This document shows positions 85 through 62,478 of a stretch of 64,000 nt of DNA, in pieces. The notes below the pieces were generated by a model. The model saw only the letters and a list, made by a program, of their open reading frames with translations, searched no databases and had not been told where the DNA came from. The DNA is from Verrucomicrobiota bacterium (GTDB lineage: Bacteria > Verrucomicrobiota > Verrucomicrobiia > Limisphaerales > UBA1096). The stretch is from contig JACNJE010000133.1 of the NCBI GenBank assembly GCA_014382705.1, positions 15,964-79,963 of the forward strand, in the 5' to 3' direction. The first letter of the stretch is position 1. Each line of letters opens with the position of its first letter. A program made the translations under genes and the position numbers.

Positions 85-3000
85 ATGATTCGCCGCTTCA
101 CCCTTCTTGCGCTTGGCCTCGGCCTGCTGCCGTTCGCCGCGCTTGGCCAAGCGCCCGCCAAGCCAACCCGGGCAACCGTCGTCACGCCCGCTGTCAGGGT
201 GAAGCCGGGCGTGCCCGCGAAACCGATACGCGCCCTCCCGGCGAAGGCACCCCAGCCAACGGCCACTCCCGACCGTGGTGACCCACCGCCGCCACTCAAG
301 GCGGCCAAGCCGGAGACGCCGCAGGAAAAACTGCACGCCGCGTTGACGGCGGTGAAGTTTGACCGCACGCCGGACGGCATCCTCGACGCGCTCGACGCGT
401 TGACAAAAAAAACCGAACCACAAAAGGAAAAGGCCGAGGCGGCGGCGGAGCGGTTCCGGCTGCTCGCCAATGCCGGAATTTGGGGGGAATTGGGCGAACT
501 CATCCGGTCGCTGCCGTTCGACGGCTCCGCCGAGAAGGCGTACCGCCACCTCATCACCGCCCTGCTCCGACCGCCCTCAACCCGTCCCGCGCCCACGATG
601 CCGAGCGGCATGCCGGCCATGCCGGTCGGTGCCCCGGTGCCACCGAAACCCACCAACAAGCCGCGCCCGATGCTCACGCAGGAGGATTTTGTCGAGATTT
701 TGAAACTGGCCCCGGCCGAGCCCAACGAGACCGATGTCGCCGCGCTGGGCAATCTGCTGCGTGGCGTGGGCCAGCCGAATTTGTCGCGCCTGGCCGAACG
801 GCTCGAGGCCGGCGTCGGCCAGTTCGGCGGCGACACGCCGGACGGCCGCAAGCGCGCCGCGCAACTGCTGCAGCCGTTGGCGAACAAATCCCAAGCCCGG
901 ATCGCGCTGAAGTTTGTGCCGGAGAGCGATGACGATTGGGCGCTCGAGATGCGGGCCAAGCTGCTCACCGAGGTTTGGCTCAGCAAACCCAGCCCCGCCA
1001 ACTTGTCCGCCGCGTGGCAGGCCAACGAAAAACTGATCGCCACCATCGACGACGACGCCAAGCGGCTCGACGGCATCAAGCGCGGCTTCACGCTCGTCGC
1101 GAAACTGCCCAAGACGACAGCCGACGACTGGATGAGCCGGCAATTCCGCGAGGGCGGCTCCGGGCTGAAACTGATCCAGCTCGTGCAGTCCGACGTGCAG
1201 CGCAATATTCGCAGCACCAACTTCACCGCGCGTGGCGAAAACCTGCGCAGCCTCAAGCAGATCGTCGGCGCGCTGCTTGCCGAAGCCGGCAGCGACTTGG
1301 CCAAGTGGCAACTCCCGCTGACCATCGCCGCCGAGGCGTGGCTCATCGAGGCCGAAAACACGGTGAACAATTTCCGCCCCACCCTCAACCGCAGCAACCC
1401 GATGGTCTACAATCCAGTTTACGAGCAGCAACGGATGTTGGCCCAGCAGAATTCCAGCCGCTACAAGCCACTTCAACCGGCCATCCTTCTTGAGCACGCC
1501 CCCGGCGACGCGTGGCTCGCCGCCCTGCCGGGAAGCCGCCGCGCCCGTGCCATGGCGGCGCTTGCCGAGACGCTGCTCAAGGCCCGGAAAATCGTCGAGG
1601 CCCTCGCCGCGATCGAGCGCTTGGCCAAGCACGACCCGAGAATAGCCAACTTGATTGCCAACACACTTTTGTCCTCCTGGGCGCAGGCCCGTAACCCCAA
1701 CCGCGGCGCGCCGCCGCGCATGTCCAATATCGGCATGCCGATGTACATCCCGTCACGGCCAAGCGGCACGCCCCTCACCCGCGCCAAGCAGAAACGCAAC
1801 CTTCGCGAGCTGGGCGAAATCCTCGTGCGCCTGGCCAAGCTGCCAATCGATCCGCCCAAGCCGCAGGCTGTCGTCGCCGCGTTCGAGGGCGCGCACAGTT
1901 TCGCCGAGGTGTACAAGCTCGACGACATTCGCGCGGTGTTCGGCGAGCCGGAAAAAATGCCGGTTGAGTCGCTGGCCACGCTGGTGAACTCGATGCGCCA
2001 GCGCCTGGCCACCTCATGGCGCGCGCCGCAGGTTCAGCAACAGGCCGGCACCAAGCGCGGTGATTCGCAGATCAACGCCGAGGTGCTTGCCGGTTACGAC
2101 ACGCTGCTGGCGCTGCTCGACGCCGGGCTTGCAGCCAAGCCGGATGTTTGGCAACTCCGGCTGCAGCAGGCCGCCGCGAACTTCGACCTCGCCGAGTACC
2201 AGTACGGCAACAAGGCCGATCTCGACGTGTACGTGAAGCACCGCGAGGCGGCGTTCGACGGCTTCAGCGAGGCCGCCGCGCTGTACACGCTGCAAACCGC
2301 CGCCGCCGCCGACAAGCCCAGCGCGCTCGTCTTTCAGCTTTGGTTCAACGCCAACCTCGGCGCGAGCGACCTGTCGTACGTCACCCGGCAGCAGATCCCG
2401 GAGATCGGCAACCTGCAGAAAATCCGTGACGCCATCCTCGTGCTGCCGGACTCGGAGGGTCACCTGAAGGCGTTCGGCGAGTCGGTGACCAACACGTCGC
2501 GCCAGCTCACGCCGGAGTTGAAGCCGCGCTACCTCCGCGCCTCGCTCGCCGTGCTCGAGGGTCATCCCGCCGGCGAGCCGGCCCGCGAACTGGTGCAGCA
2601 TTACGACGATTTGCTCGACGAGGTGGAACTGGTCGCGCGCATTGACGGCAGCGACGCGATCGGCCACACGGTGCCGTTCGGGCTGTTCATCGGCCTGCGG
2701 CACACGAGCGACATCGAGCGCGAGGCCGGCGGCTTTTCGCGCTACCTCGTCGGCGGCAGCAGCACCGGCACGCCGTATTTTTACCCGCGCTACCCCGGCC
2801 AGCGGCAGGCGCCGCGAGACGATCTCGAGGAGCATCTCGGCGAAAAACTCGGTGAGAATTTCGAGGTGCAGTCGATCACGTTTCACGACAACAAAATCCA
2901 GTCGCGCACCGTCGGCCAGCCGGGCTGGCGCGAGACGCCGCTGGCCTACGTGCTGCTCAAGGCAATGGACGCCTCGGTCGACCGCATCCCGGAACTGCAG

Positions 3001-3819
3001 ATGGATCTCGATTTTTACGACTCGCTTGGCCCAGTGCTGTTGCCGGTGACCACCGCGACGCAGATTGTCGATGCCCGCCCTGTGGCCGCCCCCGCCCGGC
3101 CGGTGGACAAGCTGGAACTGACGCAGACGCTCGACGCCCGCCTCGCCGGTGAAAACGCGGAACTGACGCTCGAGCTGCACGCCACCGGCAAGGGGTTGAC
3201 GCCGTCGCTCGACAAGCTCGTCGCGCTCGACATTCCCGGATTCGACATCGCCAAGACCGACGATCAAGGATTGTCGGTCGCGCGGGTCGAGTCGGGCGCG
3301 TCGGGCGTCAACGCCGTGAGCGAACGCACTTGGCTGCTCACGCTCAAGCCAAGCGGCGACGCCGGCGACTCGCTCGCGTTCAAGTTTCCGCAACCGACCG
3401 GCTTGGTGGCCAAGACCGTTTTCAAGCAATTCAGCGACGCCGACCTCGTGGAGGTGGAGAGCGAACTGGCGCTGGCCGGGCTGGTGCTGAATCCGCCGCC
3501 GGTTTGGCCGTGGATCGCTGGTGGCGCGGTGACACTGCTGCTTGGCCTTGGCGCGTGGCGCGTGGCCAAGCGCGACGATGGCCAGATTGCAACACCGGTT
3601 TACCGGGTGCCGGAGGAGTGCACGCCGTTCGCCGTCATCGATCTGCTGCAACGCATCGATGCCGCCCCGCCGAAGTCGCTGGCGGCCTCCCATCGCGACC
3701 AGCTGCAGGGCACCATTCGTGAACTCGAGCAAATCCACTTTGCGCCCGGCGCCACGCAGGCCAACGGCCACGGTGACTTGCAGGCCATCGCCCACGACTG
3801 GGTCGGCAAGGTGAGCTGA
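85..3819 (+). CDS. Large secreted/membrane-anchored protein of unknown function (1244 aa)
   Basis: ATG at 85 is preceded by a purine-rich AAAGGAA. The N-terminus looks like a signal peptide (MIRRFTLLALGLGLLPFAALGQA) and is followed by a Pro-rich linker. The long body has ordinary amino-acid composition, unlike the Arg/Ala/Pro-rich shadow ORFs on the opposite strand. One TM-like helix sits near the C-terminus (WPWIAGGAVTLLLGLGAW), followed by a tail of about 100 aa. No family recognised. Confidence 0.75.
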   Translation: MIRRFTLLALGLGLLPFAALGQAPAKPTRATVVTPAVRVKPGVPAKPIRALPAKAPQPTATPDRGDPPPPLKAAKPETPQEKLHAALTAVKFDRTPDGILDALDALTKKTEPQKEKAEAAAERFRLLANAGIWGELGELIRSLPFDGSAEKAYRHLITALLRPPSTRPAPTMPSGMPAMPVGAPVPPKPTNKPRPMLTQEDFVEILKLAPAEPNETDVAALGNLLRGVGQPNLSRLAERLEAGVGQFGGDTPDGRKRAAQLLQPLANKSQARIALKFVPESDDDWALEMRAKLLTEVWLSKPSPANLSAAWQANEKLIATIDDDAKRLDGIKRGFTLVAKLPKTTADDWMSRQFREGGSGLKLIQLVQSDVQRNIRSTNFTARGENLRSLKQIVGALLAEAGSDLAKWQLPLTIAAEAWLIEAENTVNNFRPTLNRSNPMVYNPVYEQQRMLAQQNSSRYKPLQPAILLEHAPGDAWLAALPGSRRARAMAALAETLLKARKIVEALAAIERLAKHDPRIANLIANTLLSSWAQARNPNRGAPPRMSNIGMPMYIPSRPSGTPLTRAKQKRNLRELGEILVRLAKLPIDPPKPQAVVAAFEGAHSFAEVYKLDDIRAVFGEPEKMPVESLATLVNSMRQRLATSWRAPQVQQQAGTKRGDSQINAEVLAGYDTLLALLDAGLAAKPDVWQLRLQQAAANFDLAEYQYGNKADLDVYVKHREAAFDGFSEAAALYTLQTAAAADKPSALVFQLWFNANLGASDLSYVTRQQIPEIGNLQKIRDAILVLPDSEGHLKAFGESVTNTSRQLTPELKPRYLRASLAVLEGHPAGEPARELVQHYDDLLDEVELVARIDGSDAIGHTVPFGLFIGLRHTSDIEREAGGFSRYLVGGSSTGTPYFYPRYPGQRQAPRDDLEEHLGEKLGENFEVQSITFHDNKIQSRTVGQPGWRETPLAYVLLKAMDASVDRIPELQMDLDFYDSLGPVLLPVTTATQIVDARPVAAPARPVDKLELTQTLDARLAGENAELTLELHATGKGLTPSLDKLVALDIPGFDIAKTDDQGLSVARVESGASGVNAVSERTWLLTLKPSGDAGDSLAFKFPQPTGLVAKTVFKQFSDADLVEVESELALAGLVLNPPPVWPWIAGGAVTLLLGLGAWRVAKRDDGQIATPVYRVPEECTPFAVIDLLQRIDAAPPKSLAASHRDQLQGTIRELEQIHFAPGATQANGHGDLQAIAHDWVGKVS
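139..154. repeat. Perfect 16-bp copy of the iterated palindrome GCGCTTGGCCAAGCGC (inside a CDS, read as A-L-G-Q-A)
   Basis: Read directly from the sequence. It is its own reverse complement. Confidence 0.95.
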
Positions 3820-3828
3820 CCGCCGCCG

Positions 3829-4758
3829 ATGCCTCCAACGCGCATCCTGCTCATCGCCAACCCAGAGGCCGGGCGGCACCGGGGGGAGCGCCGGTTGGCC
3901 GAGGCGCAGGCCCAACTCGGGGCGCTTGGCCAAGTGGTGACCCCCGCGCTGACTGAATCCCCCGGGCACGGCTCCCGCTTGGCCAAGGCAAACGCCCCCG
4001 ACTTCGAGATCGTCGCCGCGCTGGGCGGCGACGGCACGGTCAACGAGGTGGCCAACGGACTGATGGCCGTCGAGCCGGGCGAGCGCCCCGCCCTCGCCGT
4101 GCTGCCGGTCGGCACTGGCAACGACGTTGCCCTGACCTTCGGCTTGGCCAAGTTCGGGACGGCCCTCGCCGCCTTGGCCAACGGCAACACCCGGACGCTC
4201 GACATCGTCCGCGTGCAATTGGTGCGGGACGGGGAACCGATCACGCGGCACGCGCTGCTTTTTGCCGCCGCCGGGTTCGCCGCCGAGGTAATCCGCAAAA
4301 CCGGGCCGTGCGTGAAGCGATTTTTTGGGCGGCGATTCAGTTATTCAGTCGGGCTGTTCCGCGCGCTGGCCGGCTATCGCGCGCCGGAGTTTTCGGTGCA
4401 GTGGGACGGCGGCAAACGGTCGGGCCGGATGTTTCAGGTCTGCGCCGGCAACACCGAGTTTGCTGCGGGCGGCGTGATGCGCGTCTCCCCCGGCGCGCGG
4501 CCGGACGACGGCCTGCTCAACATCAGCCTGGTGGACGCGCTGGGCCGGCTGCAGATCGTGCGGCGGTTCCCCAGCATCCTCAGCGGAAGTTACGTCGAGG
4601 ACGAACGCGTCGACTACTTCACCGGAAAACGCCTCGAGATCGATGCCAAGCCAACGGCCGAACTTCAGGCCGACGGCGACATCATCGGCACCACCCCCGC
4701 CACGATCGAGCTGCTGCCGGGCGCGCTGCGCCTGGTCGTGCCACCGCAAAACTCATAA
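3829..4758 (+). CDS. Diacylglycerol/lipid kinase family protein (YegS/BmrU-like)
   Basis: Carries the GGDGTVNEV and LPVGTGND motifs of the DAG-kinase catalytic domain. It starts 10 nt after the preceding stop, so it is probably co-transcribed. Confidence 0.85.
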   Translation: MPPTRILLIANPEAGRHRGERRLAEAQAQLGALGQVVTPALTESPGHGSRLAKANAPDFEIVAALGGDGTVNEVANGLMAVEPGERPALAVLPVGTGNDVALTFGLAKFGTALAALANGNTRTLDIVRVQLVRDGEPITRHALLFAAAGFAAEVIRKTGPCVKRFFGRRFSYSVGLFRALAGYRAPEFSVQWDGGKRSGRMFQVCAGNTEFAAGGVMRVSPGARPDDGLLNISLVDALGRLQIVRRFPSILSGSYVEDERVDYFTGKRLEIDAKPTAELQADGDIIGTTPATIELLPGALRLVVPPQNS

Positions 4759-5245: not shown

Positions 5246-6565
5246 TCACGGGCCGCCGCCGCCGCTGGTGATGACCTGGAAGGTCGGCTTGACGATGGGA
5301 AGCGGGTTGACGCGGCCGAGGTTGTTGAGCCAGTTCCGCCCGCCGGCCTGGCCCTGCAACGCCGCCGCCCCCGGGCCGCCGAGCATCGACTCAATGCTGA
5401 GCGAAGTCGCGTTGTGAATCTGGCCCAGCTGCATCTGCCGCTCCTCGACGGACAGGCCGGTGTTCATGCGGATCTCCCTCGCAAGCTCCTCGGCGCTGCC
5501 CTTCATCTCGTACACCTGCGCGGAGATGTTTTCCCCCAGCCCCTGCCGCTCGGCGATCTTGTGGATCGACTTGTAGTCGTAGTCGACATGGCGCATGTAA
5601 TCCTGATAACGGTCGTCGCCCAGCGAGGTGCGAATCTGCTCGTTCATCTCCCACTCGGCGAGTTGGCGTACCTCGGCGTCGGCAGGTGAGATGCTCGAGC
5701 CGGGCACCGTGCCATACTCTTCGTCGAACCCCTTGCGCGCCGTGAAGATGTCGCGGAACTCCTCCTCACTCGGATCGAACCCATCCATCTGCAGTCTCAT
5801 GTTTGCCGCCGTGGGCGACTTGCGCAGATCGTACTCCGTTTTCTGCTCGGGGGTCAGCATCGTGGCGATACGGGTGTCGCGCTCCTGCCGCAACTGGCGG
5901 ATTTCGGCCATGTCCTGCGCGTCGCTCGCGCCTTGGGCCATTTTCCGGAGCAGCTCGCTGCCGAACTCCTGCTCGAGGCTGTTCAACTCAGCCTTGGTCT
6001 CCTCCGGGATGAAATCCATCGCGTAGCCGCTCTTGGCCTTCGATCGGGCGCGAGCCAACGGGCCGGGCCGGTTGATGGCCGTCACGCCCTCCGCTCCGAA
6101 CAACTCGCCGAGCAGTTGGTTTTTCTCATGGTCGAGCTTCGCCATCTGCGAGCGCGTGGCGCCGGACGGCTGGGAGAGGGTGCTGGGATGGCCGGTTTTC
6201 CAAAAATCCTTCCGAGCGGGGGCCTTGGTCAAGATTTCGGCCTTGCGCTGGTCGTACGCTTTGTCGAGATCCTGCTTCACGAGGTCGCGGATGGTTTCCT
6301 CCGGGCAGCCGATCCGGCGCAGGTTCTCGACATAGGTCTGGTAGTCGTCGGCCTCGACCTGGCTCCAGTGAAACGGCTCGACCTCGCGCACGACCCGCTC
6401 GACCGGCGCCGCTTGGCCAAGCGCTTGGCTTGGTGCGGCAGCAACCGGAAACTGCTGGCTTGATCCCGTTGACGGCTGCCGGTCGGTGGACAGCCAAAAC
6501 AGGCCAACGAGGCAAACCAGATTTGCCACGACCGAAATCAACAATAGCCGCTGGAGTTTCATCAA
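5246..6565 (-). CDS. Hypothetical membrane-anchored/secreted protein (439 aa)
   Basis: N-terminal hydrophobic anchor (MMKLQRLLLISVVANLVCLVGLFWLS), then a charged helical body with normal composition. No family recognised. Confidence 0.65.
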   Translation of the reverse strand: MMKLQRLLLISVVANLVCLVGLFWLSTDRQPSTGSSQQFPVAAAPSQALGQAAPVERVVREVEPFHWSQVEADDYQTYVENLRRIGCPEETIRDLVKQDLDKAYDQRKAEILTKAPARKDFWKTGHPSTLSQPSGATRSQMAKLDHEKNQLLGELFGAEGVTAINRPGPLARARSKAKSGYAMDFIPEETKAELNSLEQEFGSELLRKMAQGASDAQDMAEIRQLRQERDTRIATMLTPEQKTEYDLRKSPTAANMRLQMDGFDPSEEEFRDIFTARKGFDEEYGTVPGSSISPADAEVRQLAEWEMNEQIRTSLGDDRYQDYMRHVDYDYKSIHKIAERQGLGENISAQVYEMKGSAEELAREIRMNTGLSVEERQMQLGQIHNATSLSIESMLGGPGAAALQGQAGGRNWLNNLGRVNPLPIVKPTFQVITSGGGGP

Positions 6566-6683
6566 ACAGGAACGAAAATAACCATCACCGACGGGTGATG
6601 CAACTCATTGAAACAACGCCGCTTGGCCAAAGTTGCGCTTGGCTTGAGGGAGGCGCGATCGCCCGCTTGGCCACGCGCTTGGG

Positions 6684-7682
6684 TTATTCTTTCGTTGGGG
6701 CGGATCGCTTGAGGTAGCGGAAAAAGTCCGAGTCGGTGGAGAAAATTAGAGTGTCATCCTTGGACAGCGTGGATTCCAGAGTTTCCATAGTCTTGAGGAA
6801 CTCGTAAAACTCACGGGCCTCGGCATTTTGGTCGAATGCCTCGGCATAGATGGCCACCGCCTTGGCATCGGCCTCACCCATAATCTGTTGCTTCCCAAGA
6901 TAGGCCTTTGACGTGATTTCTTTTAACTCCTTCTGCTGCAATCCCTTGATATTTTCGGCCTCGGCGGCGCCCTCGGCACGAAATGTGGCGGAAATCCGGG
7001 AACGCTCTGAAATCATGCGATCAAAAATTGTCTTCTGAACATCCGGATTGTAGTTAATCCGCTTGAAGCGGAAATCCAGCAACTTGATGCCTAACTGCAA
7101 CAGGTTTTTGTTAGCGTCTTCTATCACCAACTGTGCCAGCTTCGAGCGGCCATGCGTGAACATCACTAACTGGGAACCGTCGTCCAGCACCTGATCATCA
7201 GCGACAACGCTCTCCCGTTGATGGGAACGGACGACCTCCACGAGATCGTTCGCCGCGATGACATTACGCACGGCACCGTCGAGTATGCCATTGAGTCTCA
7301 ACTTGGCAAAATCCACGTCTCCTAAATTTTTGTAGAAGATCTTGGCGTCCACGATACGCCATCGTGCGTAAGTGTCGATGTAGATGAACTTCTTTTCCTT
7401 GGTACTCACCTCGTTGGGCTTGCCGTCCCACTCGAGGTAGCGTTTATCAAACGAACGAACCTTATCTACAAACGGCACACGAAAATAATAACCAGCTTGG
7501 CTTGGTTTTTCCTCTCCATCTTTGGTCTCAGGGGCATTGATTGGTTCGCGTACCGTTTTGCCAAACCTCGTCACAAAAACTTGTTCTGTTTCATCGACGA
7601 TATAAATCGACGAGAAAAATGTGATAACCGCGATGAATATCCCGATTCCGAAAAAAGTTGGAATAAGTTGCTTAAACATCAT
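6684..7682 (-). CDS. hflC: Protease modulator HflC (SPFH/band-7)
   Basis: N-terminal TM segment plus an SPFH domain. The C-terminal ..STDSDFFRYLK resembles the HflC C-terminus as I recall it from E. coli. It overlaps hflK by 4 nt (ATGA). GC is clearly lower than in the flanks. Confidence 0.9.
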   Translation of the reverse strand: MMFKQLIPTFFGIGIFIAVITFFSSIYIVDETEQVFVTRFGKTVREPINAPETKDGEEKPSQAGYYFRVPFVDKVRSFDKRYLEWDGKPNEVSTKEKKFIYIDTYARWRIVDAKIFYKNLGDVDFAKLRLNGILDGAVRNVIAANDLVEVVRSHQRESVVADDQVLDDGSQLVMFTHGRSKLAQLVIEDANKNLLQLGIKLLDFRFKRINYNPDVQKTIFDRMISERSRISATFRAEGAAEAENIKGLQQKELKEITSKAYLGKQQIMGEADAKAVAIYAEAFDQNAEAREFYEFLKTMETLESTLSKDDTLIFSTDSDFFRYLKRSAPTKE

Positions 7683-8683
7683 TTGGCCTCCTGATTCAAG
7701 TTTAACAGCGGAAGCAGCCCCTTGGCATCTTCATCCATGATGATCTTGCGGGGCCCCTGATCCACGACAAACCCTCCCTCGCCGTCATCTCTCTGTTGCG
7801 TGGCAAGAACCTTGCCGATGGTCTCAAGGTAGATTCGTTTTCGGGTGATCTCGGGCGCCTTTTGGTAGGCGCTGAAAACCTGCTTGAACAGGTCCGCGTC
7901 ACCTTGGGCGTTATTTTCGCGCTCAATGGCATACCCCTCGGCATCTAAAATTGTTCTCTTGGCTTCGCCTATAGCTTTGTAAATGACCGTGTTTTTCTCT
8001 GCCTCGGCCTTGTTGATCATCGAGGATTTTTCCTGCTGGGCCTTGTTGACATCGTTCCATGATTCCTTGACAGACTCAGGCGGATAGACGTCCTGCAGGA
8101 TTACCTGGGTAATCATGATCCCCAGTTCGTACTTGTTGACCATTTCCTGTAACGTCTTCTTCACCTCATCCTGAATTTCGGTGCGCCCCACGGTGAGCAC
8201 CTCGTTGATCGTACGATCCCCCACCACTTCACGCATCACCGCCTCGTTCATGTCTTGAAATGTGTCTTCCGCATTAAGCACTTTGAAAAGATAATTGTAT
8301 GCCTTTTCAACCCTGTACTGCGTGAACCACTGGACATCGGCGATGTTGAGGTCGCCAGTGACGATCTGGGCTGCCGCCCTCTGGGCAGGGGTGCGTGACC
8401 TCGCGGACGTTTCGTCGAACCCGAACATTGCCTTGCGCAACTCAGTAACCTTGACCTTTGTCACCCGGTCGATGCCAAACGGCCAGTTGAATTTCAAGCC
8501 CTCCTCCACGACCGGGTTGCCGATGTACCTGCCCAGTCTCAGCACGATAGCATGCTCGCCGGGGTTGATCTTGTAAAAACTGCTCATTACCCCGAAGCCG
8601 ACCAGCAGCACCACCACCCCACCAACGATTAATTTGTTAACGGCAGCCGGGTTGATTCGTATCTCGTTTGGAAAATCAGCCAT
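7679..8683 (-). CDS. hflK: Protease modulator HflK (SPFH/band-7)
   Basis: N-terminal TM segment plus an SPFH domain (..INPGEHAIVLRLGRY..), located immediately upstream of hflC and overlapping it. Confidence 0.9.
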   Translation of the reverse strand: MADFPNEIRINPAAVNKLIVGGVVVLLVGFGVMSSFYKINPGEHAIVLRLGRYIGNPVVEEGLKFNWPFGIDRVTKVKVTELRKAMFGFDETSARSRTPAQRAAAQIVTGDLNIADVQWFTQYRVEKAYNYLFKVLNAEDTFQDMNEAVMREVVGDRTINEVLTVGRTEIQDEVKKTLQEMVNKYELGIMITQVILQDVYPPESVKESWNDVNKAQQEKSSMINKAEAEKNTVIYKAIGEAKRTILDAEGYAIERENNAQGDADLFKQVFSAYQKAPEITRKRIYLETIGKVLATQQRDDGEGGFVVDQGPRKIIMDEDAKGLLPLLNLNQEAK

Positions 8684-15580: not shown

Positions 15581-15596
15581 GCGCTTGGCCAAGCGC
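15581..15596. repeat. Perfect 16-bp palindrome copy, intergenic
   Basis: GCGCTTGGCCAAGCGC lies 3 nt downstream of the prepilin-like gene stop (minus strand). Its TTG creates the false MAKRK start of the track ORF. Confidence 0.95.
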
Positions 15597-22705: not shown

Positions 22706-23074
22706 ATGGGCACATTTCACGTCGGCTGCAAAGTGGAAAACCATGTGAACCGGAATCGCACCGTGCGCTTGGCCAAGGCGTTGGTGGACACCGGCAGCGA
22801 GTACACATGGGTGCCGAGCAAAAAACTGGAAAAGATCGGCGTGGAACGGGAGAAGAAAGACATGCGGTTTGCGATGGCCAACGGCCAAGTGATTACTCGC
22901 AGCGTGGGGTTTGCCATCCTCCGCGTGGCCAATGCCTTCACAATCGACGAGGTCGTCTTTGCCGAGCCGGGCGATCAAACCCTACTCGGCGCTCGAACCC
23001 TTGAAGGGCTGAACCTTGTGGTGGATGCGGCCAGAAAAAAACTCGTTGCTGCCGGACCGCTGCCGGCCGCTTGA
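22706..23074 (+). CDS. Retropepsin-like (clan AA) aspartic protease
   Basis: A 122-aa protein with a D-T-G-S active-site motif (ALVDTGSEYTWVP), typical of the small bacterial retroviral-like protease family. Confidence 0.7.
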   Translation: MGTFHVGCKVENHVNRNRTVRLAKALVDTGSEYTWVPSKKLEKIGVEREKKDMRFAMANGQVITRSVGFAILRVANAFTIDEVVFAEPGDQTLLGARTLEGLNLVVDAARKKLVAAGPLPAA

Positions 23075-54349: not shown

Positions 54350-54365
54350 GCGCTTGGCCAAGCGC
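54350..54365. repeat. Perfect 16-bp palindrome copy, intergenic (helicase-methyltransferase divergent spacer)
   Basis: Read directly from the sequence. Confidence 0.95.
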
Positions 54366-54388: not shown

Positions 54389-55195
54389 GTGGAAATCACC
54401 CAGGACCACAACCGCCGCGTCTGGGACGAACGCGCCCGGCACGGCCTGCTGCACACGCGAACCGCGCGAGACGACGAGTTCGCCGACCCGCTGAAGGCCA
54501 TCAACGGCCGGGGCTGGATCGACGGCGGGCTCGAGGACAAACGGGTTCTCTGCCTCGCCGGCGGCGGCGGGTTGCAGGCACCGCTTTACGCCGCCGCCGG
54601 GGCCAAGGTGACGGTGGTGGACATCAGCCCGGCGATGCTCGAGCAGGATAAACGTGTTGCCCGCGAGCGCGGTCTCGAACTGCAGACCATCGCCGCGTCG
54701 ATGGACGATCTGCCGATGCTCGCCGACGCGTCGTTCGACCTTGTCACCCAGCCGGTCAGCACCTGCTACGTGCCAAGCTTGGCCAAGGTTTACGACGGGA
54801 TCGCCCGCGTGCTGCGCGTCGGCGGGCAGTACCTCAGCCAGCACAAACAGCCGCTCAACCTCCAAGCTGCGCCGACGCCGTTCCCGAACGGCTACGCCGT
54901 CACCGAGGGTTATTATGCCACGGGGCCGGTGCCGCCGCTGCACGGCGAGTTCGAGCATCGGGAAAAGGGCGCGCTCGAGTTCGTGCATCGCTGGGAGGAA
55001 CTGGTCGGCGGACTGTGCCGCGCCGGCTTCGTGATCGAGGATGTTGCCGAGCCGAGGCACGGCGATCCCGCCGCCGAGCCGGGAACGTTCCGGCATCGCA
55101 GCCAATACATTCCACCGTACGTCGCCATCAAGGCGCGTCGTGTTGCCACCCCCGTGCTTGGCCAAGCGGCGGCGGCCGGCATCGTCATGCCGTGA
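54389..55195 (+). CDS. Class I SAM-dependent methyltransferase
   Basis: Motif I VLCLAGGGGLQAPLYAAAGAKVTVVDIS. Substrate unknown. Confidence 0.8.
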   Translation: MEITQDHNRRVWDERARHGLLHTRTARDDEFADPLKAINGRGWIDGGLEDKRVLCLAGGGGLQAPLYAAAGAKVTVVDISPAMLEQDKRVARERGLELQTIAASMDDLPMLADASFDLVTQPVSTCYVPSLAKVYDGIARVLRVGGQYLSQHKQPLNLQAAPTPFPNGYAVTEGYYATGPVPPLHGEFEHREKGALEFVHRWEELVGGLCRAGFVIEDVAEPRHGDPAAEPGTFRHRSQYIPPYVAIKARRVATPVLGQAAAAGIVMP

Positions 55196-55237
55196 AACGG
55201 CTTGGCCAAGCCGCAGGCCAACGGTAGCTTGGCGGCC

Positions 55238-57355
55238 ATGTTGATTCGCATCGCACTGTTTATTGTCGCCGGCACTCTTGCCGCCTGTTCCACCCCAAAA
55301 AATACCAGCACCCCCGCCGGGTTCTCCGGCGACTGGGCGGAGTTCAAGCGCTTGGCCAAGCGCAACGGCACGCAGGTCTCGCTGCCGCCGTTTGAGACCA
55401 CGCCGCAGGCCTCGCTCGACGCCGTCGGCGCAGCCATCGCAGCAGCCGACAAGCGGCTCGACGCCATCGGCACGATCAAGCCAAGCGAGGCGACCTTCGA
55501 TAACACGCTCGGCGCGATCGACGATCTGGCGTTTGACCTGTCGCTCGTGGCCAACCGCACCTACATGCTCAAGGAAACCAGCGAGAACGCCGAGCACCGC
55601 GCCCAGGCCACCGAGGCAATCAAGCGGTTCGACGAGTGGGCCGTCGGCCTCGACTACCGCGAAGATGTTTATCGCGTGATCAAGGCGTACGCCGACTCGA
55701 AGCCCAAGCTGAGCGGCGAGGCCAAGCGACTGCTCGAACAGACGCTGCGCGACTACCGCCGGGCCGGGTTGCACCTGGCCAAGGCCGAGCGGGATGAGGT
55801 TGAGCAACTCCGCAAGCAACTTTCCGCCGCGACGACCGAGTTTCGCACCAACATCACCAATGCCAAAAAGGAACTGAAGTTCACCGCCGCACAACTCGAG
55901 GGGGTGCCGGGGAGTTTCCTCGAGCAGGTCAAGACCGGCGACGACGAATACACGCTGCAGGCCAACGTGACGTTTCACTACCTCAACGTCATGCGCAGTG
56001 CCAAGCCGGAGGCGACGCGCAAGCGGTTCTCCGGCGAACGCAAGCGGCTCGCCCGCGAGCAAAACATTCCGCTGCTAAAAACGGTCCTGCAACTCCGTGC
56101 CACCATCGCGGCCAAGCTCGGCTACAAGACATGGGCCGACTACCGCTGCGAAGTCAAGATGGCCGGCAATGGCACGACGGCGCGCGAGTTTTTGATGAAC
56201 CTCAAGAGCGGCCTCGAGCCGAAGTGGCAGGCCGAGCTCGCGCAGTTCAACACGCTGAAACGCCGCGAGACCGGCGACCCCGACGCCACCCTGAAAATGT
56301 GGGATGCCTTTTACTACATGAACCTGCTGAAGAAGGAAAAGTACTCCGTGGACACCGAGCAGCTTCGCGTGTTTTTCCCGTACGAACAGACGCTGCACGG
56401 AATGTTTCGCGTGTACGAACGCATCTTCGGCCTGAAGATTGTGGCGTCCACCGCGCCGTACAAATGGCACGAGCAAGTGACGCTGCACCTTGTTTACGAC
56501 GCCGCCACCGGCAACCCGCTGGGTGCGCTGTACCTCGACATGTTCCCGCGCGACGGCAAGTACAATCACTTCGCGATGTTCCCGCTGATCTCCGGAAAAC
56601 GGCTGCCGGACGGCACCTACCAGCGGCCCACCGTCGCGCTGATTTGCAACTTCCCCACGCCGGGGAAGGACACCCCGTCGCTACTCTCGCACGACAACGT
56701 CGAGACGTTGTTCCACGAGTTTGGCCACGCGCTGCACGGCATCCTCACGCAGACTCGGTTCACGCGTTTCGCCGGAACGAGCGTGCCGCGCGACTTCGTC
56801 GAGGCGCCGTCGCAGATGCTCGAGAACTGGATTTGGGACAAGACTGTGCTCGACTCCTTCGCCGCCGACTACCGCGATCCGTCGAAAAAAATCCCCGAAG
56901 CCGTGCTGGCAAAACTGAAGGAGGCAAAGAAAGCCACCGTCGCCCGGCACTACCGCGGCCAATTGTCGTACGGGCTGGTTGACCTGACTCTGCACTCGCT
57001 GACAGAGGAGGAAGCCAAGATCGTCGAGCCGGTGGCGTTGTCCAACCAGATCACCGAGGCCGTCTATCTCAAGCCGCAAGAGAACACGTCATTCGTCGGC
57101 TACTTCGGCCATCTCATGGGCTACGACGCCGGCTACTACGGCTACGCCTGGGCCGACTCGATTTCCGCCGACATGGCCACGGTTTTTGAAAACGCGCCGG
57201 AGCGCTACTTCGACGCAACAGCCGGACAGCGACTGCGGCGGGAGATTTACGAAGTGGGCGACTCTCGCGATGTCAGCGAGTCGATCGAGAAATTCCTCGG
57301 CCGCCCCCGCTCGCTCAAGCCGTTCCTCCAAGACCTCGGCATCCTCGACGAATAG
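55238..57355 (+). CDS. M3 family zinc metallopeptidase (oligopeptidase/Dcp-like) lipoprotein
   Basis: HEFGHALH zinc motif and M3 length. Lipobox MLIRIALFIVAGTLAAC. The track start at 55202 is a TTG inside a palindrome copy. Confidence 0.88.
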   Translation: MLIRIALFIVAGTLAACSTPKNTSTPAGFSGDWAEFKRLAKRNGTQVSLPPFETTPQASLDAVGAAIAAADKRLDAIGTIKPSEATFDNTLGAIDDLAFDLSLVANRTYMLKETSENAEHRAQATEAIKRFDEWAVGLDYREDVYRVIKAYADSKPKLSGEAKRLLEQTLRDYRRAGLHLAKAERDEVEQLRKQLSAATTEFRTNITNAKKELKFTAAQLEGVPGSFLEQVKTGDDEYTLQANVTFHYLNVMRSAKPEATRKRFSGERKRLAREQNIPLLKTVLQLRATIAAKLGYKTWADYRCEVKMAGNGTTAREFLMNLKSGLEPKWQAELAQFNTLKRRETGDPDATLKMWDAFYYMNLLKKEKYSVDTEQLRVFFPYEQTLHGMFRVYERIFGLKIVASTAPYKWHEQVTLHLVYDAATGNPLGALYLDMFPRDGKYNHFAMFPLISGKRLPDGTYQRPTVALICNFPTPGKDTPSLLSHDNVETLFHEFGHALHGILTQTRFTRFAGTSVPRDFVEAPSQMLENWIWDKTVLDSFAADYRDPSKKIPEAVLAKLKEAKKATVARHYRGQLSYGLVDLTLHSLTEEEAKIVEPVALSNQITEAVYLKPQENTSFVGYFGHLMGYDAGYYGYAWADSISADMATVFENAPERYFDATAGQRLRREIYEVGDSRDVSESIEKFLGRPRSLKPFLQDLGILDE
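55348..55363. repeat. Perfect 16-bp palindrome copy inside the M3 peptidase gene (read as R-L-A-K-R)
   Basis: Read directly from the sequence. Confidence 0.95.
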
Positions 57356-57371
57356 CGCTTGGCCAAGCAGC

Positions 57372-59549
57372 TCAACCAGCGGCTTTGTTCAGGGCGCTCA
57401 GGACGATATCGGGAGTCAGCAACTCGGGCAGCATCTCCGGTTGTGATGTTTTGTCGCGCGGAAAAACCAGCACCAGTGGCACACCCGCCCTGCCCCGGCG
57501 GTGCAGTTCTTTCGTAATATAATCCGGTCGGCGCGTGTAGTCGGCCCGGAACACCTTAAAATTTTTCTTCGCCAACAGGGTGCGCACCGACTCGATGTCG
57601 AGGCTCGTTTTTTTGTTGGCAATGCAGGTGAGGCACCACTTGGCCGTGAAGTCCACCAGCACCGGTTGGCCCGCTTCGCGCGCCTCGGCCACGGCCTCCA
57701 GTGACCAGCGGTGCCAACGGATGCCGCCGGGGAAATCCTGCACCACGTCGGCCTTGGCCTGTGACGGATCAACCGGCGTTCGCCACTGCATCTGCCCCTC
57801 GAGGCCGAACACGACCCCGCCCAACGCCAGCGCCCCAGCGATGCCTAGCGCCAAGCCGCGCCGCTTGATGCCGCGCTGAAAAAACTCGCCGAACACCCAA
57901 GCGGCCATCGCAATCACGGTCAGGAAAATGCCGAACCACAATACCCGGCCGCCGTAATAGTCGATGCTCACCGTGAACAGCCAAATGCCCGTGGCCAACA
58001 TCGGGAAACCCATCGCCACCTTGAATCGCTCCATCCACGACCCCGGCTTGGGCAGGAAACGCAGCAGCTTGGGGTTCCAACTCAGCACGACGTACGGGAA
58101 CGCGAGGCCAAGCGCGACGGTGACAAACATCAGCACGATCACGGCGGCGGTTTGCGTGAAGGCAAAGCCCAGCGCCGGCGCGAGGAACGGTGCCGTGCAA
58201 GGCGTCGCCAAAACCGTGGCCAGCACGCCGTTGAAAAACGCGCCCCCTGCCCCCTCCCGGCCCGCCACGGACCCGGCCGCAACGCCAACCGAGCCGAGCG
58301 TGACCTCAAACAGGCCGAACAGATTCAGCGCCACCAGCAGGATGAGGACGGTCAGCAACACGACGAACTGCGGGTTCGACATCTGCATGCCCCAGCTTGC
58401 CAGTTCGCCCGCGCTCTTCACGCCGATCACCACGCCGGCCAGCACCAAAAACGACACGACCACCCCCGCGCCGTACAGCATTCCGAGCAGCCGCACGCGC
58501 GCCGGCGACTCCCTGCTTTGGTTGACGAACCCGAGAATCTTCAGCGAGATCACCGGCAGCACACACGGCATGACGTTCAAAATCAGTCCGCCGATGAAGG
58601 CGTACAGCAACATCCGCCAGAGCGGCCTGTCGGCTCCGGGCGGGGTCTGCAAAACCGTCGTCCCGGCATCGCCCGAGGTGAGGGTGTAGATCGGGAACTT
58701 GACCTCGAATGCTTCTGTCTTGTCGTGATCCTTCAGGTTGCGAACGGCCAAGCCGGAGACTTCGCTTGGCCAAGCGCCCTCAAACTTCATCACCGTTTTT
58801 TTGATGCGAACGTTTGCAGCGCCGGCGGCGGCCACCTCGCTTTCCGGCGACACCTCAAACCCGTCGGACGGCAGTGCGAAAAAATCGGCGTCGGTGCCCG
58901 CTTGGCCAGCGTCAAACTCGATCAGCAACGATCGCTCATCCTCCTTGGCCTCGCCATCCCACCGAGCGCTGACGGCCAACTTCGCATCGACTTTCGGGAG
59001 TTTCTGTTTTGCGGCATCCAGCTTGGCGGCGTCCGCCGAGCGTGCGTCTCTCCCTGCGATCGTCAACATTGCACTCACCTGCTGGTCGCGCGGGATGCAG
59101 AGTTCCTTGCACTCAAGCCAACTGACCTTGCCGGAGATCGTCGCTTGGCCAAGCGCGGCGTCAGCGCCGATGGTGAGCGGCACGAGCAGGATTGTTTTGT
59201 CGTGGTAACCGTAGCCGATCGAGCCAAGCGCGGTGAACTTCTCCGGCGTTGGCCACTGGATCGGCCCGGCACTCACGCCGTTGGGCAGCGTCCATTCGAC
59301 GTCGGTCGCGATGCCGGCCTCGCCGGGGTTGATCCAGTACGTGTGCCAGCCGTCGTCCATTGTCAACTCCAGCCCGGCCATCACCGTCGAGCCCGGCTTA
59401 GCCTCGGAGTGGGACAGCAGCAGCTTGGCCACGGTCGCCGGCTTGGCGATGCCGCCGGCCTGGCCGCCGCCGAACGGGTCGTCAAACTGCGCGTTGAGGT
59501 TGCCTGCAAGTGACAGCAGGAAAAGGTAACCGAGACCACTGGCTCTCAT
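57372..59549 (-). CDS. dsbD: Thiol:disulfide interchange protein DsbD-like
   Basis: Signal peptide, an N-terminal DsbD-alpha-like domain, a central TM domain with conserved Cys (NVMPCVLPV, LATPCTAPFL), and a C-terminal thioredoxin domain (WCLTC). Confidence 0.88.
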   Translation of the reverse strand: MRASGLGYLFLLSLAGNLNAQFDDPFGGGQAGGIAKPATVAKLLLSHSEAKPGSTVMAGLELTMDDGWHTYWINPGEAGIATDVEWTLPNGVSAGPIQWPTPEKFTALGSIGYGYHDKTILLVPLTIGADAALGQATISGKVSWLECKELCIPRDQQVSAMLTIAGRDARSADAAKLDAAKQKLPKVDAKLAVSARWDGEAKEDERSLLIEFDAGQAGTDADFFALPSDGFEVSPESEVAAAGAANVRIKKTVMKFEGAWPSEVSGLAVRNLKDHDKTEAFEVKFPIYTLTSGDAGTTVLQTPPGADRPLWRMLLYAFIGGLILNVMPCVLPVISLKILGFVNQSRESPARVRLLGMLYGAGVVVSFLVLAGVVIGVKSAGELASWGMQMSNPQFVVLLTVLILLVALNLFGLFEVTLGSVGVAAGSVAGREGAGGAFFNGVLATVLATPCTAPFLAPALGFAFTQTAAVIVLMFVTVALGLAFPYVVLSWNPKLLRFLPKPGSWMERFKVAMGFPMLATGIWLFTVSIDYYGGRVLWFGIFLTVIAMAAWVFGEFFQRGIKRRGLALGIAGALALGGVVFGLEGQMQWRTPVDPSQAKADVVQDFPGGIRWHRWSLEAVAEAREAGQPVLVDFTAKWCLTCIANKKTSLDIESVRTLLAKKNFKVFRADYTRRPDYITKELHRRGRAGVPLVLVFPRDKTSQPEMLPELLTPDIVLSALNKAAG

Positions 59550-61719: not shown

Positions 61720-62420
61720 CCGGCGGCCTCCCGTTTTTCGACCCCCGCCAGCTCGGTTTTGTGTTTGACCCAGCGCCTGTCCGGCAGCACGCCGGTGAAG
61801 GTGACGTTCGGGTACAGCAGGCAGTCCCGGCCGATGATCGCGCCGGGGTTGAGCACGGCGTTGCAGCCGATCTCGGTCCGGTCGCCGATCAACGCGCCAA
61901 ACTTGGCCAAGCCGCTGTCGAGCGTCCCGGAGGCCGTGCGGACGTTGACGTTGCCACGGATCAGCCGGTAGTTGGACAGCATCGCGCCGGCGCCGAGGTG
62001 GACGCGGTGGCCCAGTACGGAGTCGCCGACGTAGTTGAAGTGCGGCACGTCGCAGCCGTTGAACAGCACCGCGTTTTTCAACTCGACCGCGTGACCGACC
62101 ACGCAGTCGTCGCCAACAATCACGTTGCCGCGCAGCGTCGCCCCGTGGCCGATGCAGCAGTTGCGGCCGATCCAGGCCGGCCCACGGATCAGCGCCCCTG
62201 CCTCGATCACCGTGCCTTCGCCGACGAACACATCACCCTCGATCACCGCCTGGGCGTGCGCTTGGCCAAGCTGTGCCACCCGCAGGGTGTCGCGAAGATA
62301 GTCGCCGATGCGCGGGAGCACCTCCCACGCCTGGCCAAGCGAGTCGAACAGGCTCGTGTGCTCCGTCTGGCCAAGGTCGAACAACGCCTCGGCTCGGGGG
62401 ATGTGTGATGCGGACTCCAT
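61716..62420 (-). CDS. Left-handed beta-helix (hexapeptide repeat) transferase
   Basis: Runs of hexapeptide repeats (..IGHGATLRGNVIVGDDCVVGHAVELKNAVLFNGCDV..). Its stop overlaps the dinG start by 4 nt. The probable start is MESASHIP at 62420. Confidence 0.7.
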   Translation of the reverse strand: MESASHIPRAEALFDLGQTEHTSLFDSLGQAWEVLPRIGDYLRDTLRVAQLGQAHAQAVIEGDVFVGEGTVIEAGALIRGPAWIGRNCCIGHGATLRGNVIVGDDCVVGHAVELKNAVLFNGCDVPHFNYVGDSVLGHRVHLGAGAMLSNYRLIRGNVNVRTASGTLDSGLAKFGALIGDRTEIGCNAVLNPGAIIGRDCLLYPNVTFTGVLPDRRWVKHKTELAGVEKREAAG

Positions 62421-62478
62421 GTGCGCTTGGCCAAGTGGAAACAAAAAAGCCCTCCGGGTGGAAGGGCTTTTTGCCGGG

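Follow-up and report, generated by a model that had tools for sequence, protein, structure and literature searches.

A hyper-iterated palindrome with helical phasing in uncultured marine Verrucomicrobiota

Why does a bacterium carry the same palindrome about once per kilobase, much of the time inside ordinary genes? The question is raised by a stretch of 64,000 bp from a Verrucomicrobiota bacterium (contig JACNJE010000133.1, positions 15,964 to 79,963), called the window below, with a G+C content of 62.8%. The octamer TTGGCCAA recurs throughout it as the centre of a two-fold symmetric consensus of 16 bp, (GCGC)TTGGCCAA(GCGC). Hyper-iterated palindromes (HIPs) of cyanobacteria have gone some thirty years without an agreed function, the proposals being methylation-linked repair, chromosome structure and DNA uptake. 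Our work demonstrated that the copies in this clade are clustered locally and phased by whole turns of the DNA helix. We see about an even chance that the element is a lineage-specific hyper-iterated palindrome of the same kind as cyanobacterial HIP1, serving as the duplex binding site of a putative dimeric, cooperatively binding protein.

A palindromic word written at the level of DNA

The window holds exactly 70 copies of TTGGCCAA, the first at 143-150 and the last at 62427-62434, and many of them extend into longer palindromes: 58 are CTTGGCCAAG (10-mer), 34 GCTTGGCCAAGC (12-mer), 22 CGCTTGGCCAAGCG (14-mer) and eight the 16-mer GCGCTTGGCCAAGCGC (starts 139, 15581, 32389, 36111, 48069, 48625, 54350 and 55348). 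A first-pass annotation of this DNA had given about 70 octamers, about 22 14-mers and eight 16-mers; these counts and all of its coordinates are exact, and the measured G+C lies within its estimate of 60-65%. Base composition alone predicts about 0.74 octamers per window by simple arithmetic, 100 dinucleotide-preserving shuffles gave a mean of 1.59 (standard deviation 1.31, maximum 5), and Markov models expect 1.4 (order 1) or 4.6 (order 3). The over-representation that the annotation had claimed is thus confirmed, with 70 copies against 1.6 in shuffles to 4.6 at order 3, a 15- to 95-fold excess, and it rises to 100- to 600-fold for the 10-mer (58 observed, 0.09-0.55 expected). Among palindromic octamers of the window the runner-up has 23 copies, and 680 kb of pooled DNA from the clade contains 687 copies against 17-52 expected. 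The comparison with a maximal-order Markov model that the annotation had suggested yields 64 expected copies against 70 observed, which is no refutation but is uninformative, because nearly all TTGGCCA and TGGCCAA 7-mers sit inside the full motif and a nested motif escapes such a model.

The enrichment is nested round the core TGGCCA, present 151 times in the window where 21-47 are expected. Outside the octamer, positions 1 to 4 carry about 1.0, 0.5, 0.4 and 0.2 bits of information, symmetrically on both sides, and nothing is conserved past 16 bp, both in the 70 window copies and in 686 pooled sites from the 680 kb; the annotation's argument that the element is no end of a miniature inverted-repeat transposable element (MITE) or insertion sequence (IS) held in this larger set. 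One-mismatch variants at the outermost positions are enriched in the window (CTGGCCAA/TTGGCCAG 33, GTGGCCAA/TTGGCCAC 20, about 3-6 expected), whereas inner variants are at background with 0-8 each, and the 680-kb pool has the same pattern. Two copies can overlap as a 12-bp tile, TTGGCCAAGCGCTTGGCCAA, which creates a second palindrome centre, AAGCGCTT. Tiles stand at 32389-32412 and 39640-39663 of the window, both right after stop codons, and 14 were found in the pooled loci; AAGCGCTT is itself among the commoner palindromic octamers in relatives. The 16-mer can also fold into a weak hairpin with a 6-bp stem and a GGCC loop (-5.5 kcal/mol, z = -1.8). In a covariation test complementarity was slightly raised at the four consensus flank pairs (for example 0.58 vs 0.51) and at none further out, a result confounded by the choice of loci.

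Fifty-five copies (79%) lie in genes, on either strand, close to the three quarters in ordinary genes that had been estimated by eye. The other 15 (21%) are intergenic, two of them depending on the choice of start codon, and fall in the 7.6% of the window between genes, so that density is about 3-fold higher there (3.1 per kb) than in coding DNA (0.93 per kb). The intergenic copies occupy divergent, convergent and co-directional spacers and have no T-run; five of them lie 2-13 bp past stop codons. Copies are evenly placed along genes, with no enrichment at gene ends in the window (7 and 7 vs 5 expected), and the genes are ordinary housekeeping and envelope genes, among them ArgRS, a UvrA-like ATPase, sigma-70, DsbD, aminotransferases, sulfatases and a PVC-type heme-binding protein. 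All three frames are used: 31 copies encode L-A-K/N (TTG GCC AAn), 21 x-G-Q (nTT GGC CAA) and three W-P.

The motif overrides codon usage and distorts the proteome. With gene starts taken from the open reading frames (ORFs) of the window, L-A-[KN] is encoded by TTGGCCAA in 33/58 cases where codon usage predicts 4.9, although TTG makes up only 17% of leucine codons, and [LIVF]-G-Q is spelled with the motif in 21/40 cases where 0.8 are expected. The tripeptides themselves are about 5-fold in excess (LAK 50 vs 10.4 expected, LGQ 29 vs 6.5). Because copies occur in three frames and on both strands, are 3-fold denser between genes and run against codon usage, the signal lies at the DNA level: the palindrome belongs to the DNA itself and not to the proteins or RNA that it encodes.

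The best protein matches of the window (up to 91% identity) are metagenome-assembled genomes (MAGs) labelled Verrucomicrobiota or Verrucomicrobiales, and the nearest species representative by protein matches is Verrucomicrobia bacterium UBA673. We compared the window with seven relatives that share its gene order (L001, L081 and L083-L087). Density of TTGGCCAA and G+C content in these genomes are as follows:
Window: 1.09 per kb, 62.8%
L081: 0.97 per kb, 59.0%
L084: 0.93 per kb, 58.3%
L001: 0.84 per kb, 56.5%
L083: 0.35 per kb, 50.7%
L085: 0.34 per kb, 43.5%
L086: 0.20 per kb, 41.8%
L087: 0.09 per kb, 40.7%

In every one of them except L087 the octamer is the top or joint-top palindromic octamer, and in L085 all five TGGCCA sites (5/5) are full octamers. 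A compositional shift as large as that among the relatives sharing gene order with window positions 39600-62000 (L001 and L081-L087; 41% to 63% G+C, 64-85% nucleotide identity) is unusual within one clade, and motif density drops as G+C drops. In loci from Akkermansia, Chthoniobacter, Opitutaceae and further Verrucomicrobiota with at most 65% identity in the UvrA-like protein, the octamer is found 0-2 times per locus, a density of about 0 per kb. When metagenome contigs were scanned with the 16-mer, at least 120 loci matched, and 68 of the 120 listed are motif-dense, with 571 sites in 561 kb, about one per kb, on unrelated contigs with many different genes; the contig records of these loci look marine. 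The palindrome is hence clade-wide and genome-wide in uncultured marine Verrucomicrobiota and not a local repeat, and confinement to the window, which the annotation had named as a ground for abandoning its claim, is removed by the similar density in relatives and unrelated contigs. Contig L156 (IMGVR_UViG_3300032087_002358, 13.7 kb), which is phage-like and encodes a DnaB helicase and the large subunit of a terminase, carries eight octamers distributed from end to end, a density of 0.59 per kb at a G+C of 54%, and lacks GGGCCC; presumably it is a phage or prophage belonging to this clade, with the word usage of its host. When a viral collection was scanned with the 14-mer, nearly all matches were single and chance-like, and only L156 had many copies.

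Helical phasing, spacing and retention

Neighbouring copies cluster, with 282 pairs within 300 bp where about 168 are expected under a Poisson model, and 14 cases at exactly 12 bp, the overlapping tiles, form a spike in the spacing distribution. The periodogram of copy distances from 13 to 210 bp has a single peak at 10.4-10.6 bp with a power of 21-25; the 95% level of the null is about 6, the best power beyond 9.5-11.5 bp is 3.8, and 0 of 2000-3000 randomisations that preserve mod-3 classes reached the observed peak. After homologous duplicates were dropped, 203 pairs from 60 loci remained. Of the 113 pairs at most 110 bp apart, to which 60 loci contribute, 90 (80%) are in phase, that is, within a quarter turn of whole 10.5-bp turns (P = 7e-11). 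The phasing recurs when each half of the data is taken separately (P < 0.0004) and also among the pairs of the window by themselves (n = 16, P = 0.004).

Protein structure and general DNA curvature do not account for the signal. Motif pairs within one ORF have a mean cosine of 0.38-0.45, whereas the same tripeptides in non-motif codons are unphased (-0.06, n = 49), as are L[AG][KQNRED] (0.03, n = 344) and all leucines (0.00); these peptide controls exclude the 3.6-residue periodicity of the alpha-helix as the source. The amplitude of non-motif AA/TT is 0.01, against 0.38 for the motif, which excludes general AA/TT curvature, and other frequent words are at noise level. Pairs outside one ORF and at most 120 bp apart are phased to the same extent (mean cosine 0.35, n = 34, P = 0.006), with the proviso that gene calls outside the window are heuristic and coding calls for metagenome loci crude. 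The first-pass annotation had taken the one-mismatch variants for decaying or nascent copies. Their enrichment at the outer positions stands, but they are not merely decaying, since outer variants themselves keep phase with perfect copies (0.23, P < 0.0004), in contrast to inner variants (0.09, not significant).

At kilobase scale copies are more evenly spread than chance. In 2-kb bins of the window chi-square is 13.2 where 31 is expected (P = 0.002), and in the other loci the P value is 0.067 for 2-kb, 0.37 for 3-kb and 0.0008 for 4-kb bins.

How do the copies arise? In codon-anchored alignments of 17 window genes with their syntenic relatives, motif copies occupy orthologous codons without gaps and the genomes differ by substitutions only. 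Sites are therefore gained and lost by point change, as had been proposed, with no insertions or deletions. Some copies are old: that at 45460 is present in 6/8 genomes and that at 52037 in 7/8, and a site in the spacer before the UbiE-like gene is an octamer in the window, L081 and L083-L087 (7/7 checked), including A+T-rich spacers in genomes of 41-44% G+C. Others, at 51373, 52694 and 54779, are unique to this genome. Gains can alter the protein, as at 52694 (L-A-E/R/Q to L-A-K) and 55352 (N-I-A-K or S-I-A-E to R-L-A-K). Most losses are G-to-A or C-to-T changes at one or another of the four G/C positions in the centre, above all in lineages drifting to low G+C. The palindrome is thus created by point substitutions at ordinary gene positions, against codon usage and sometimes with a change of amino acid.

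Copies once present are retained more than neighbouring sequence. Motif octamers are conserved in 8/18 cases in L001, 12/19 in L081, 9/16 in L084 and 3/14 in L085, where the fractions for all 8-mers are 0.27, 0.32, 0.14 and 0.03, respectively. Where the amino acid is conserved, the identical synonymous codon is found inside the motif in 44/49 cases in L081 and 34/40 in L084; the same codon types elsewhere predict 31.4 and 19.9. The strain pair L081 and L082 was uninformative for turnover, having six differences in 17 kb, none at a motif site.

Copies and neighbouring features in the window

The copies are listed below by position in the window. A sign in brackets gives the strand of the host gene, and four letters give the peptide encoded across the copy.
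139..154, 16-bp copy, hypothetical 1244-aa gene (+), LGQA
1296..1305, 10-bp copy, hypothetical 1244-aa gene (+), LAKW
1619..1630, 12-bp copy, hypothetical 1244-aa gene (+), LAKH
3925..3934, 10-bp copy, DAG-kinase/YegS gene (+), LGQV
3978..3987, 10-bp copy, DAG-kinase/YegS gene (+), LAKA
4143..4152, 10-bp copy, DAG-kinase/YegS gene (+), LAKF
4174..4181, 8-bp copy, DAG-kinase/YegS gene (+), LANG; 30 bp from the copy at 4143
6410..6423, 14-bp copy, hypothetical gene (-), LGQA
6623..6630, 8-bp copy, intergenic; gene start 58 bp downstream
9345..9354, 10-bp copy, Na:solute symporter gene (-), LAKG
9385..9392, 8-bp copy, Na:solute symporter gene (-), LAKA
10448..10457, 10-bp copy, sulfatase gene (-), LAKR
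10568..10575, 8-bp copy, sulfatase gene (-), LGQR
12221..12230, 10-bp copy, PVC heme-binding gene (-), LAKL
12263..12272, 10-bp copy, PVC heme-binding gene (-), LAKR; 42 bp from the copy at 12221
12488..12495, 8-bp copy, PVC heme-binding gene (-), LGQL
14445..14452, 8-bp copy, PVC heme-binding gene (-), LANP
14578..14589, 12-bp copy, PVC heme-binding gene (-), LAKP
15581..15596, 16-bp copy, 5' end of PVC heme-binding gene (-), LAKR
16460..16469, 10-bp copy, hypothetical gene (-), LAKV
17764..17773, 10-bp copy, aldehyde dehydrogenase gene (+), LAKE
18144..18157, 14-bp copy, aldehyde dehydrogenase gene (+), LGQA
18407..18414, 8-bp copy, aldehyde dehydrogenase gene (+), LAND
19628..19635, 8-bp copy, FG-GAP gene (+), IGQL
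21321..21330, 10-bp copy, PhoPQ-related gene (-), LGQV
21415..21424, 10-bp copy, PhoPQ-related gene (-), LAKR; 94 bp from the copy at 21321
22768..22777, 10-bp copy, intergenic, divergent region
23094..23103, 10-bp copy, intergenic; aminotransferase start 30 bp downstream
23718..23731, 14-bp copy, aminotransferase III gene (+), AWPS
25305..25316, 12-bp copy, sulfatase gene (-), LAKP
25465..25472, 8-bp copy, sulfatase gene (-), LGQH
25611..25622, 12-bp copy, sulfatase gene (-), LAKR
27758..27769, 12-bp copy, intergenic; desaturase stop codon 10 bp before
29390..29399, 10-bp copy, aminotransferase V gene (+), LAKR
29536..29549, 14-bp copy, aminotransferase V gene (+), LGQA
29908..29921, 14-bp copy, aminotransferase V gene (+), LGQA
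31946..31957, 12-bp copy, CinA gene (-), AWPS
31976..31985, 10-bp copy, CinA gene (-), LAKV; 29 bp from the copy at 31946
32389..32412, two copies tiled in tandem at a distance of 12 bp (GCGCTTGGCCAAGCGCTTGGCCAA), intergenic, directly past a stop codon
35327..35336, 10-bp copy, intergenic; HAD gene stop codon 2 bp before
36111..36126, 16-bp copy, intergenic, divergent region
37738..37751, 14-bp copy, about 30 bp upstream of the likely ankyrin-gene ATG; intergenic provided that this ATG is the true start
39640..39663, two copies tiled in tandem at a distance of 12 bp, intergenic; LysE stop codon 7 bp before
42807..42820, 14-bp copy, P5C reductase gene (-), LGQA; also in L081, L083 and L084
43327..43340, 14-bp copy, KDPG-aldolase gene (-), LAKR; also in L081 and L084
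45299..45312, 14-bp copy, intergenic, ArgRS start 20 bp downstream; also in L081
45458..45469, 12-bp copy, ArgRS gene (+), LAKR; octamer (45460) kept in 6/8 genomes
45747..45756, 10-bp copy, ArgRS gene (+), LAKV; also in L001, L085 and L086
46769..46782, 14-bp copy, ArgRS gene (+), LGQA; also in L084; L081 and L083 have TTGACCAA
48069..48084, 16-bp copy, UvrA-like gene (+), LAKR
48625..48640, 16-bp copy, UvrA-like gene (+), LGQA; also in L001 and L084
51309..51316, 8-bp copy, peptidase M10 gene (-), LGQW
51372..51381, 10-bp copy, peptidase M10 gene (-), LAKD; this genome only (gain)
51602..51615, 14-bp copy, hypothetical gene (-), LGQA
51646..51657, 12-bp copy, hypothetical gene (-), LAKR; 43 bp from the copy at 51602
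52037..52044, 8-bp copy, hypothetical gene (-), IGQA; kept in 7/8 genomes
52693..52702, 10-bp copy, DUF218 gene (+), LAKE; this genome only, relatives L-A-E/R/Q
54350..54365, 16-bp copy, intergenic, with the UbiE-like gene about 30 bp downstream; octamer in 7/7 genomes checked
54778..54787, 10-bp copy, UbiE-like gene (+), LAKV; this genome only
55156..55167, 12-bp copy, UbiE-like gene (+), LGQA
55200..55211, 12-bp copy, past the UbiE-like stop and ahead of the likely peptidase M3 start; 44 bp from the copy at 55156
55348..55363, 16-bp copy, peptidase M3 gene (+), LAKR; L083 has N-I-A-K and L084 S-I-A-E there
57357..57368, 12-bp copy, 16-bp gap between convergent genes; also in L081
58763..58776, 14-bp copy, DsbD gene (-), AWPS
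59142..59155, 14-bp copy, DsbD gene (-), LGQA
61902..61911, 10-bp copy, hexapeptide-transferase gene (-), LAKF
62260..62271, 12-bp copy, hexapeptide-transferase gene (-), LGQA
62426..62435, 10-bp copy, hexapeptide-transferase gene (-), LGQA
6684..8683 (-), motif-free stretch, two Band_7/SPFH genes; third-position G+C 0.58-0.69 vs about 0.83 elsewhere
37775..39196, motif-free stretch, ankyrin-repeat and lumazine-binding genes; third-position G+C 0.43-0.48

The two gene pairs of low third-position G+C have no motif site at all (P = 0.04), and in the relatives glutamine synthetase is followed directly by LysE, without the ankyrin pair. Both pairs, the Band_7 pair at 6684-8683 and the ankyrin/lumazine-binding pair at 37775-39196, were probably acquired recently.

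Three further observations concern the neighbourhood of the palindrome. The spacer between the DEAD helicase and UbiE-like genes is 49 bp long in the window and 270-335 bp in four relatives (L084 17141-17412, L085 9050-9380, L086 9349-9676, L087 15573-15907), in which it contains conserved blocks such as AACGGTTGCGGTT ... AAGCTTAATGCTTATTGCTCA. An unannotated small RNA or a regulatory region may lie there; Rfam gave no match in the window or in the conserved L087 spacer. The UvrA-like and peptidase M10 genes converge on a gap (49699-49781) that contains a long inverted repeat, CATGGATGGACAGGATGAACAGG ... CCTGTCCACCCTGTCCATCCATG, which is probably a terminator for both directions and is unrelated to the palindrome. 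The UvrA-like protein (47044-49698) is short, with 884 aa, relatives outside the clade having 1350-1540 aa, and its gene follows ArgRS by 3 bp in all relatives. Instead of the canonical excinuclease subunit, the protein may be a paralogue of UvrA.

What the palindrome may be for

In its behaviour the element is HIP-like, but it is not HIP1, because its sequence is TTGGCCAA and its host belongs to the Verrucomicrobiota; the cyanobacterial words are HIP1, GCGATCGC, and the alternates TCGATCGA, GGGATCCC and CAGGCCTG (PMC4390886, PMC5861425). It shares with these a G+C-rich palindromic octamer, about one copy per kb and a 15- to 300-fold excess over expectation. Like HIP1 it is found in genes, in all frames, and in spacers, and it is conserved across genomes above control words, as HIP1 sites are above control sequence (PMC5861425). 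One-mismatch variants are concentrated at the first and last positions in both (PMC4390886), and the core is in both cases a classical methyltransferase or restriction target. The first-pass annotation's view of a hyper-iterated palindrome akin to HIP1 or to DNA uptake sequences is therefore borne out with regard to HIP behaviour in abundance, spread, frames, conservation and variant pattern. Unlike HIP1, the element reaches 16 bp in its consensus. A cognate DNA methyltransferase for the internal sequence is a feature of HIP1 (PMC4390886); here none was found in the window or, by a weak pattern search, in 0.56 Mb of clade contigs. HIP1 is also distributed periodically at 10-90 kb (PMC5861425), a scale to be set against the 64-kb window and other loci of at most 23 kb covered here. 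A role in DNA uptake has recently been proposed for HIP1, and the HIP1 selection paper that we searched makes no mention of whole-turn spacing of neighbouring copies. Full-text searches for the 8-mer and 10-mer returned primer sequences only, and the HIP literature lists cyanobacterial words only, in agreement with the annotation's remark that no element with this sequence had been described. New are thus a HIP-like element in a new phylum, the word itself, its 16-bp extent and its helical phasing.

Other systems share some of these properties. The DNA uptake sequences (DUS) of Neisseria and the uptake signal sequences (USS) of Pasteurellaceae also occur about once per kb, are lineage-specific, lie in genes in all frames at a cost to the proteins, have a core with weaker flanks and are under-represented in recently acquired DNA. 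Unlike the perfect palindrome described here, whose intergenic copies have no T-run, they are asymmetric and often form inverted pairs that act as terminators. They are tied to demonstrated competence, DUS also to the ComP receptor, and nothing of the kind is known for this clade. SeqA of Escherichia coli binds paired hemimethylated GATC and needs at least two sites that look to the same side of the helix and are separated by a few turns. It acts on a short palindrome that is abundant chromosome-wide and may be the best known precedent for phased genome-wide palindromes; the whole-turn spacing of neighbours that it needs is what we observed here, with a 10.6-bp peak, 80% of pairs in phase and negative controls. 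GATC, however, has only 4 bp and is not hyper-abundant relative to composition, and SeqA is limited to some Gammaproteobacteria. The sites parS, Noc-binding site (NBS), SlmA-binding site (SBS) and matS (bound by MatP) are two-fold symmetric words of 12-16 bp, read by dimers, that organise the chromosome, and the 16-bp symmetric word resembles them. Those sites number from a few to about a hundred per genome and mostly spare genes, whereas the palindrome would number thousands and reshapes coding sequence. Very-short-patch repair by Dcm and Vsr over-represents a methylated palindrome (CCWGG) through biased repair of T:G mismatches; here, C-to-T products are not depleted, the enrichment is larger by orders of magnitude and the specificity extends to 16 bp.

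The symmetric 16-bp site, the tolerance of mismatches only at its outer positions, synonymous retention, the conserved spacer copy, whole-turn spacing and kilobase evenness together point to a putative dimer that would bind cooperatively on one face of the helix. We hypothesize that such a protein reads duplex B-DNA, with the two-fold symmetric word as its binding site, and that it would be a sequence-specific nucleoid-associated or chromosome-marking protein whose logic is comparable to that of SeqA on phased GATC pairs. Selection for binding would hold the density near one site per kb, and cytosine methylation of the TGGCCA core may form part of the system. Several points weigh against such a protein. 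None of the genes in the window encodes a candidate for it in Pfam and NCBIfam scans, and one site per kb in genes is far denser than the sites of any sequence-specific nucleoid protein that we know of (parS, NBS, matS, SBS). The phasing signal comes mostly from pairs inside one ORF (n = 133), the outside-ORF subset being small and its coding calls crude, and kilobase evenness is not significant at every bin size (3-kb bins in the other loci). The metagenome loci were picked via the perfect 16-mer, a choice that makes the flanks in the pooled logo look slightly more conserved and leaves spacing unaffected. Finally, retention above background could also stem from repair that restores near-sites, and not only from selection.

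Such repair is at the heart of the alternative that we rank highest, while holding it unlikely: a ratchet of the kind proposed by Elhai for HIP1, or of the Dcm/Vsr type, in which an orphan methyltransferase marks TGGCCA or GGCC and linked mismatch repair turns near-sites into functionless sites. In its favour, the core is a classical type II target. Several further G+C-rich palindromes are strongly avoided in the window (GGGCCC 2 vs 40 expected, GAGCTC 3 vs 18, CCGCGG 17 vs 76; CTAG-containing hexamers 0-1), as GGGCCC is in 680 kb of clade DNA (39 vs 340). This avoidance looks like that of restriction targets of the ApaI, SacI and SacII type; the accumulation of TGGCCA is therefore a real exception, and the contrast that the annotation had drawn with usually avoided targets holds within the same genome. 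The nesting of the enrichment round the core also fits a ratchet, as do the restriction of enriched variants to the first and last positions, known for HIP1 round its methylated core (PMC4390886), and a methylated TGGCCA motif (5-methylcytosine, m5C) without REBASE match from marine pelagic metagenomes (PMC8919816). The motif in phage-like contig L156 fits a process imposed by the host. However, the products of deamination in the 680 kb are not depleted, with observed/expected ratios of 1.9 for TTGGTCAA/TTGACCAA and 3.4 for TTGGCTAA/TTAGCCAA, above the transversion variants and opposite to a Vsr signature, and a tally of lost sites in the alignments of relatives showed no position-specific hot spot, both C positions being hit equally. 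Sixteen base pairs exceed the usual methyltransferase site, and a ratchet predicts neither helical phasing nor kilobase evenness. Pfam and NCBIfam scans of essentially all window genes found no methyltransferase, restriction or Vsr gene, and a weak search of all ORFs in 77 clade loci (0.56 Mb) with m5C, N4/N6 methyltransferase and Vsr sequence patterns gave three matches, all false, one of them seryl-tRNA synthetase. Five Verrucomicrobia MAGs in the pelagic study had no methyltransferase genes, though they may not belong to this clade (PMC8919816).

Improbable too, and ranked behind repair, is a signal for DNA uptake or self-recognition in natural transformation, in which a receptor would prefer DNA with the motif, and uptake and recombination would drive its density (molecular drive). 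The density of about one per kb is that of DUS, USS and HIP1, all frames are used with distortion of codon use and tripeptide content, as has been described for the USS of Pasteurellaceae, and the strong core with weaker flanks and the two motif-free, probably recently acquired gene pairs (P = 0.04) are as expected. The window also has a CinA and a prepilin-type gene, which count for little since such genes are widespread. Against an uptake signal, the uptake sequences known so far lack symmetry, a phage-like contig carries the motif at 0.59 per kb, and neither competence nor a receptor is known for the clade. Uptake bias predicts neither whole-turn spacing nor phased outer variants, and to our knowledge helical phasing is not a property of uptake sequences. 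The phasing hence makes a duplex-binding protein likelier than an uptake signal or a pure by-product of repair. A favoured peptide (LAK, LGQ) or an RNA hairpin, of which the DNA word would be a shadow, is very hard to sustain. It could draw on the 5-fold excess of the tripeptides, the 6-bp stem with its GGCC loop and the five copies just past stop codons, but the frame and codon tests contradict it: three frames give three unrelated peptides, on both strands, with 3-fold higher density outside genes, the rare TTG codon is used in 33/58 L-A-K/N, and the same peptides in other codons are unphased. The hairpin is weak and lacks a T-run, and the genuine terminator-like hairpin of the window (49699-49781) looks quite different. 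Next to no weight is left for remnants of a tiny mobile element (MITE, repetitive extragenic palindrome (REP) or IS ends) or a local duplication, for which high copy number, the palindromic word and the tandem 12-bp tiles in two intergenic regions might speak. Repeats of the REP or MITE type are intergenic, have units of at least 20-40 nt and spread by insertion; here, 79% of copies are in genes, nothing is conserved past 16 bp in 686 sites, copies align gap-free to orthologous codons and differ by substitutions, and unrelated contigs have equal density.

What would a cooperatively binding dimer mean for these bacteria? With less confidence than the binding-site reading itself, and short of even belief, we propose a previously unrecognised, chromatin-like and sequence-specific system, in which an abundant dimeric protein would occupy thousands of 16-bp palindromes, spaced evenly at kilobase scale and by whole turns locally, and selection for it would override codon usage and raise LAK and LGQ five-fold. 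The case illustrates how far a DNA-level signal can remodel protein sequences. As an independent case in another phylum and with a different word, it also shows that hyper-iteration is no cyanobacterial peculiarity. For binning, the motif offers an easy marker of contigs and phages from this clade. Close relatives of 41-63% G+C with graded motif density, together with motif-free sister lineages, form a natural comparison set, and phylogenetic profiling for the responsible protein is therefore feasible. Helical phasing is a concrete and testable prediction that favours a cooperative duplex-binding protein and can be checked in HIP1-rich genomes. If the chromatin-like system is real and HIP1 shows the same phasing, this would be the first mechanistic handle on the purpose of hyper-iterated palindromes.

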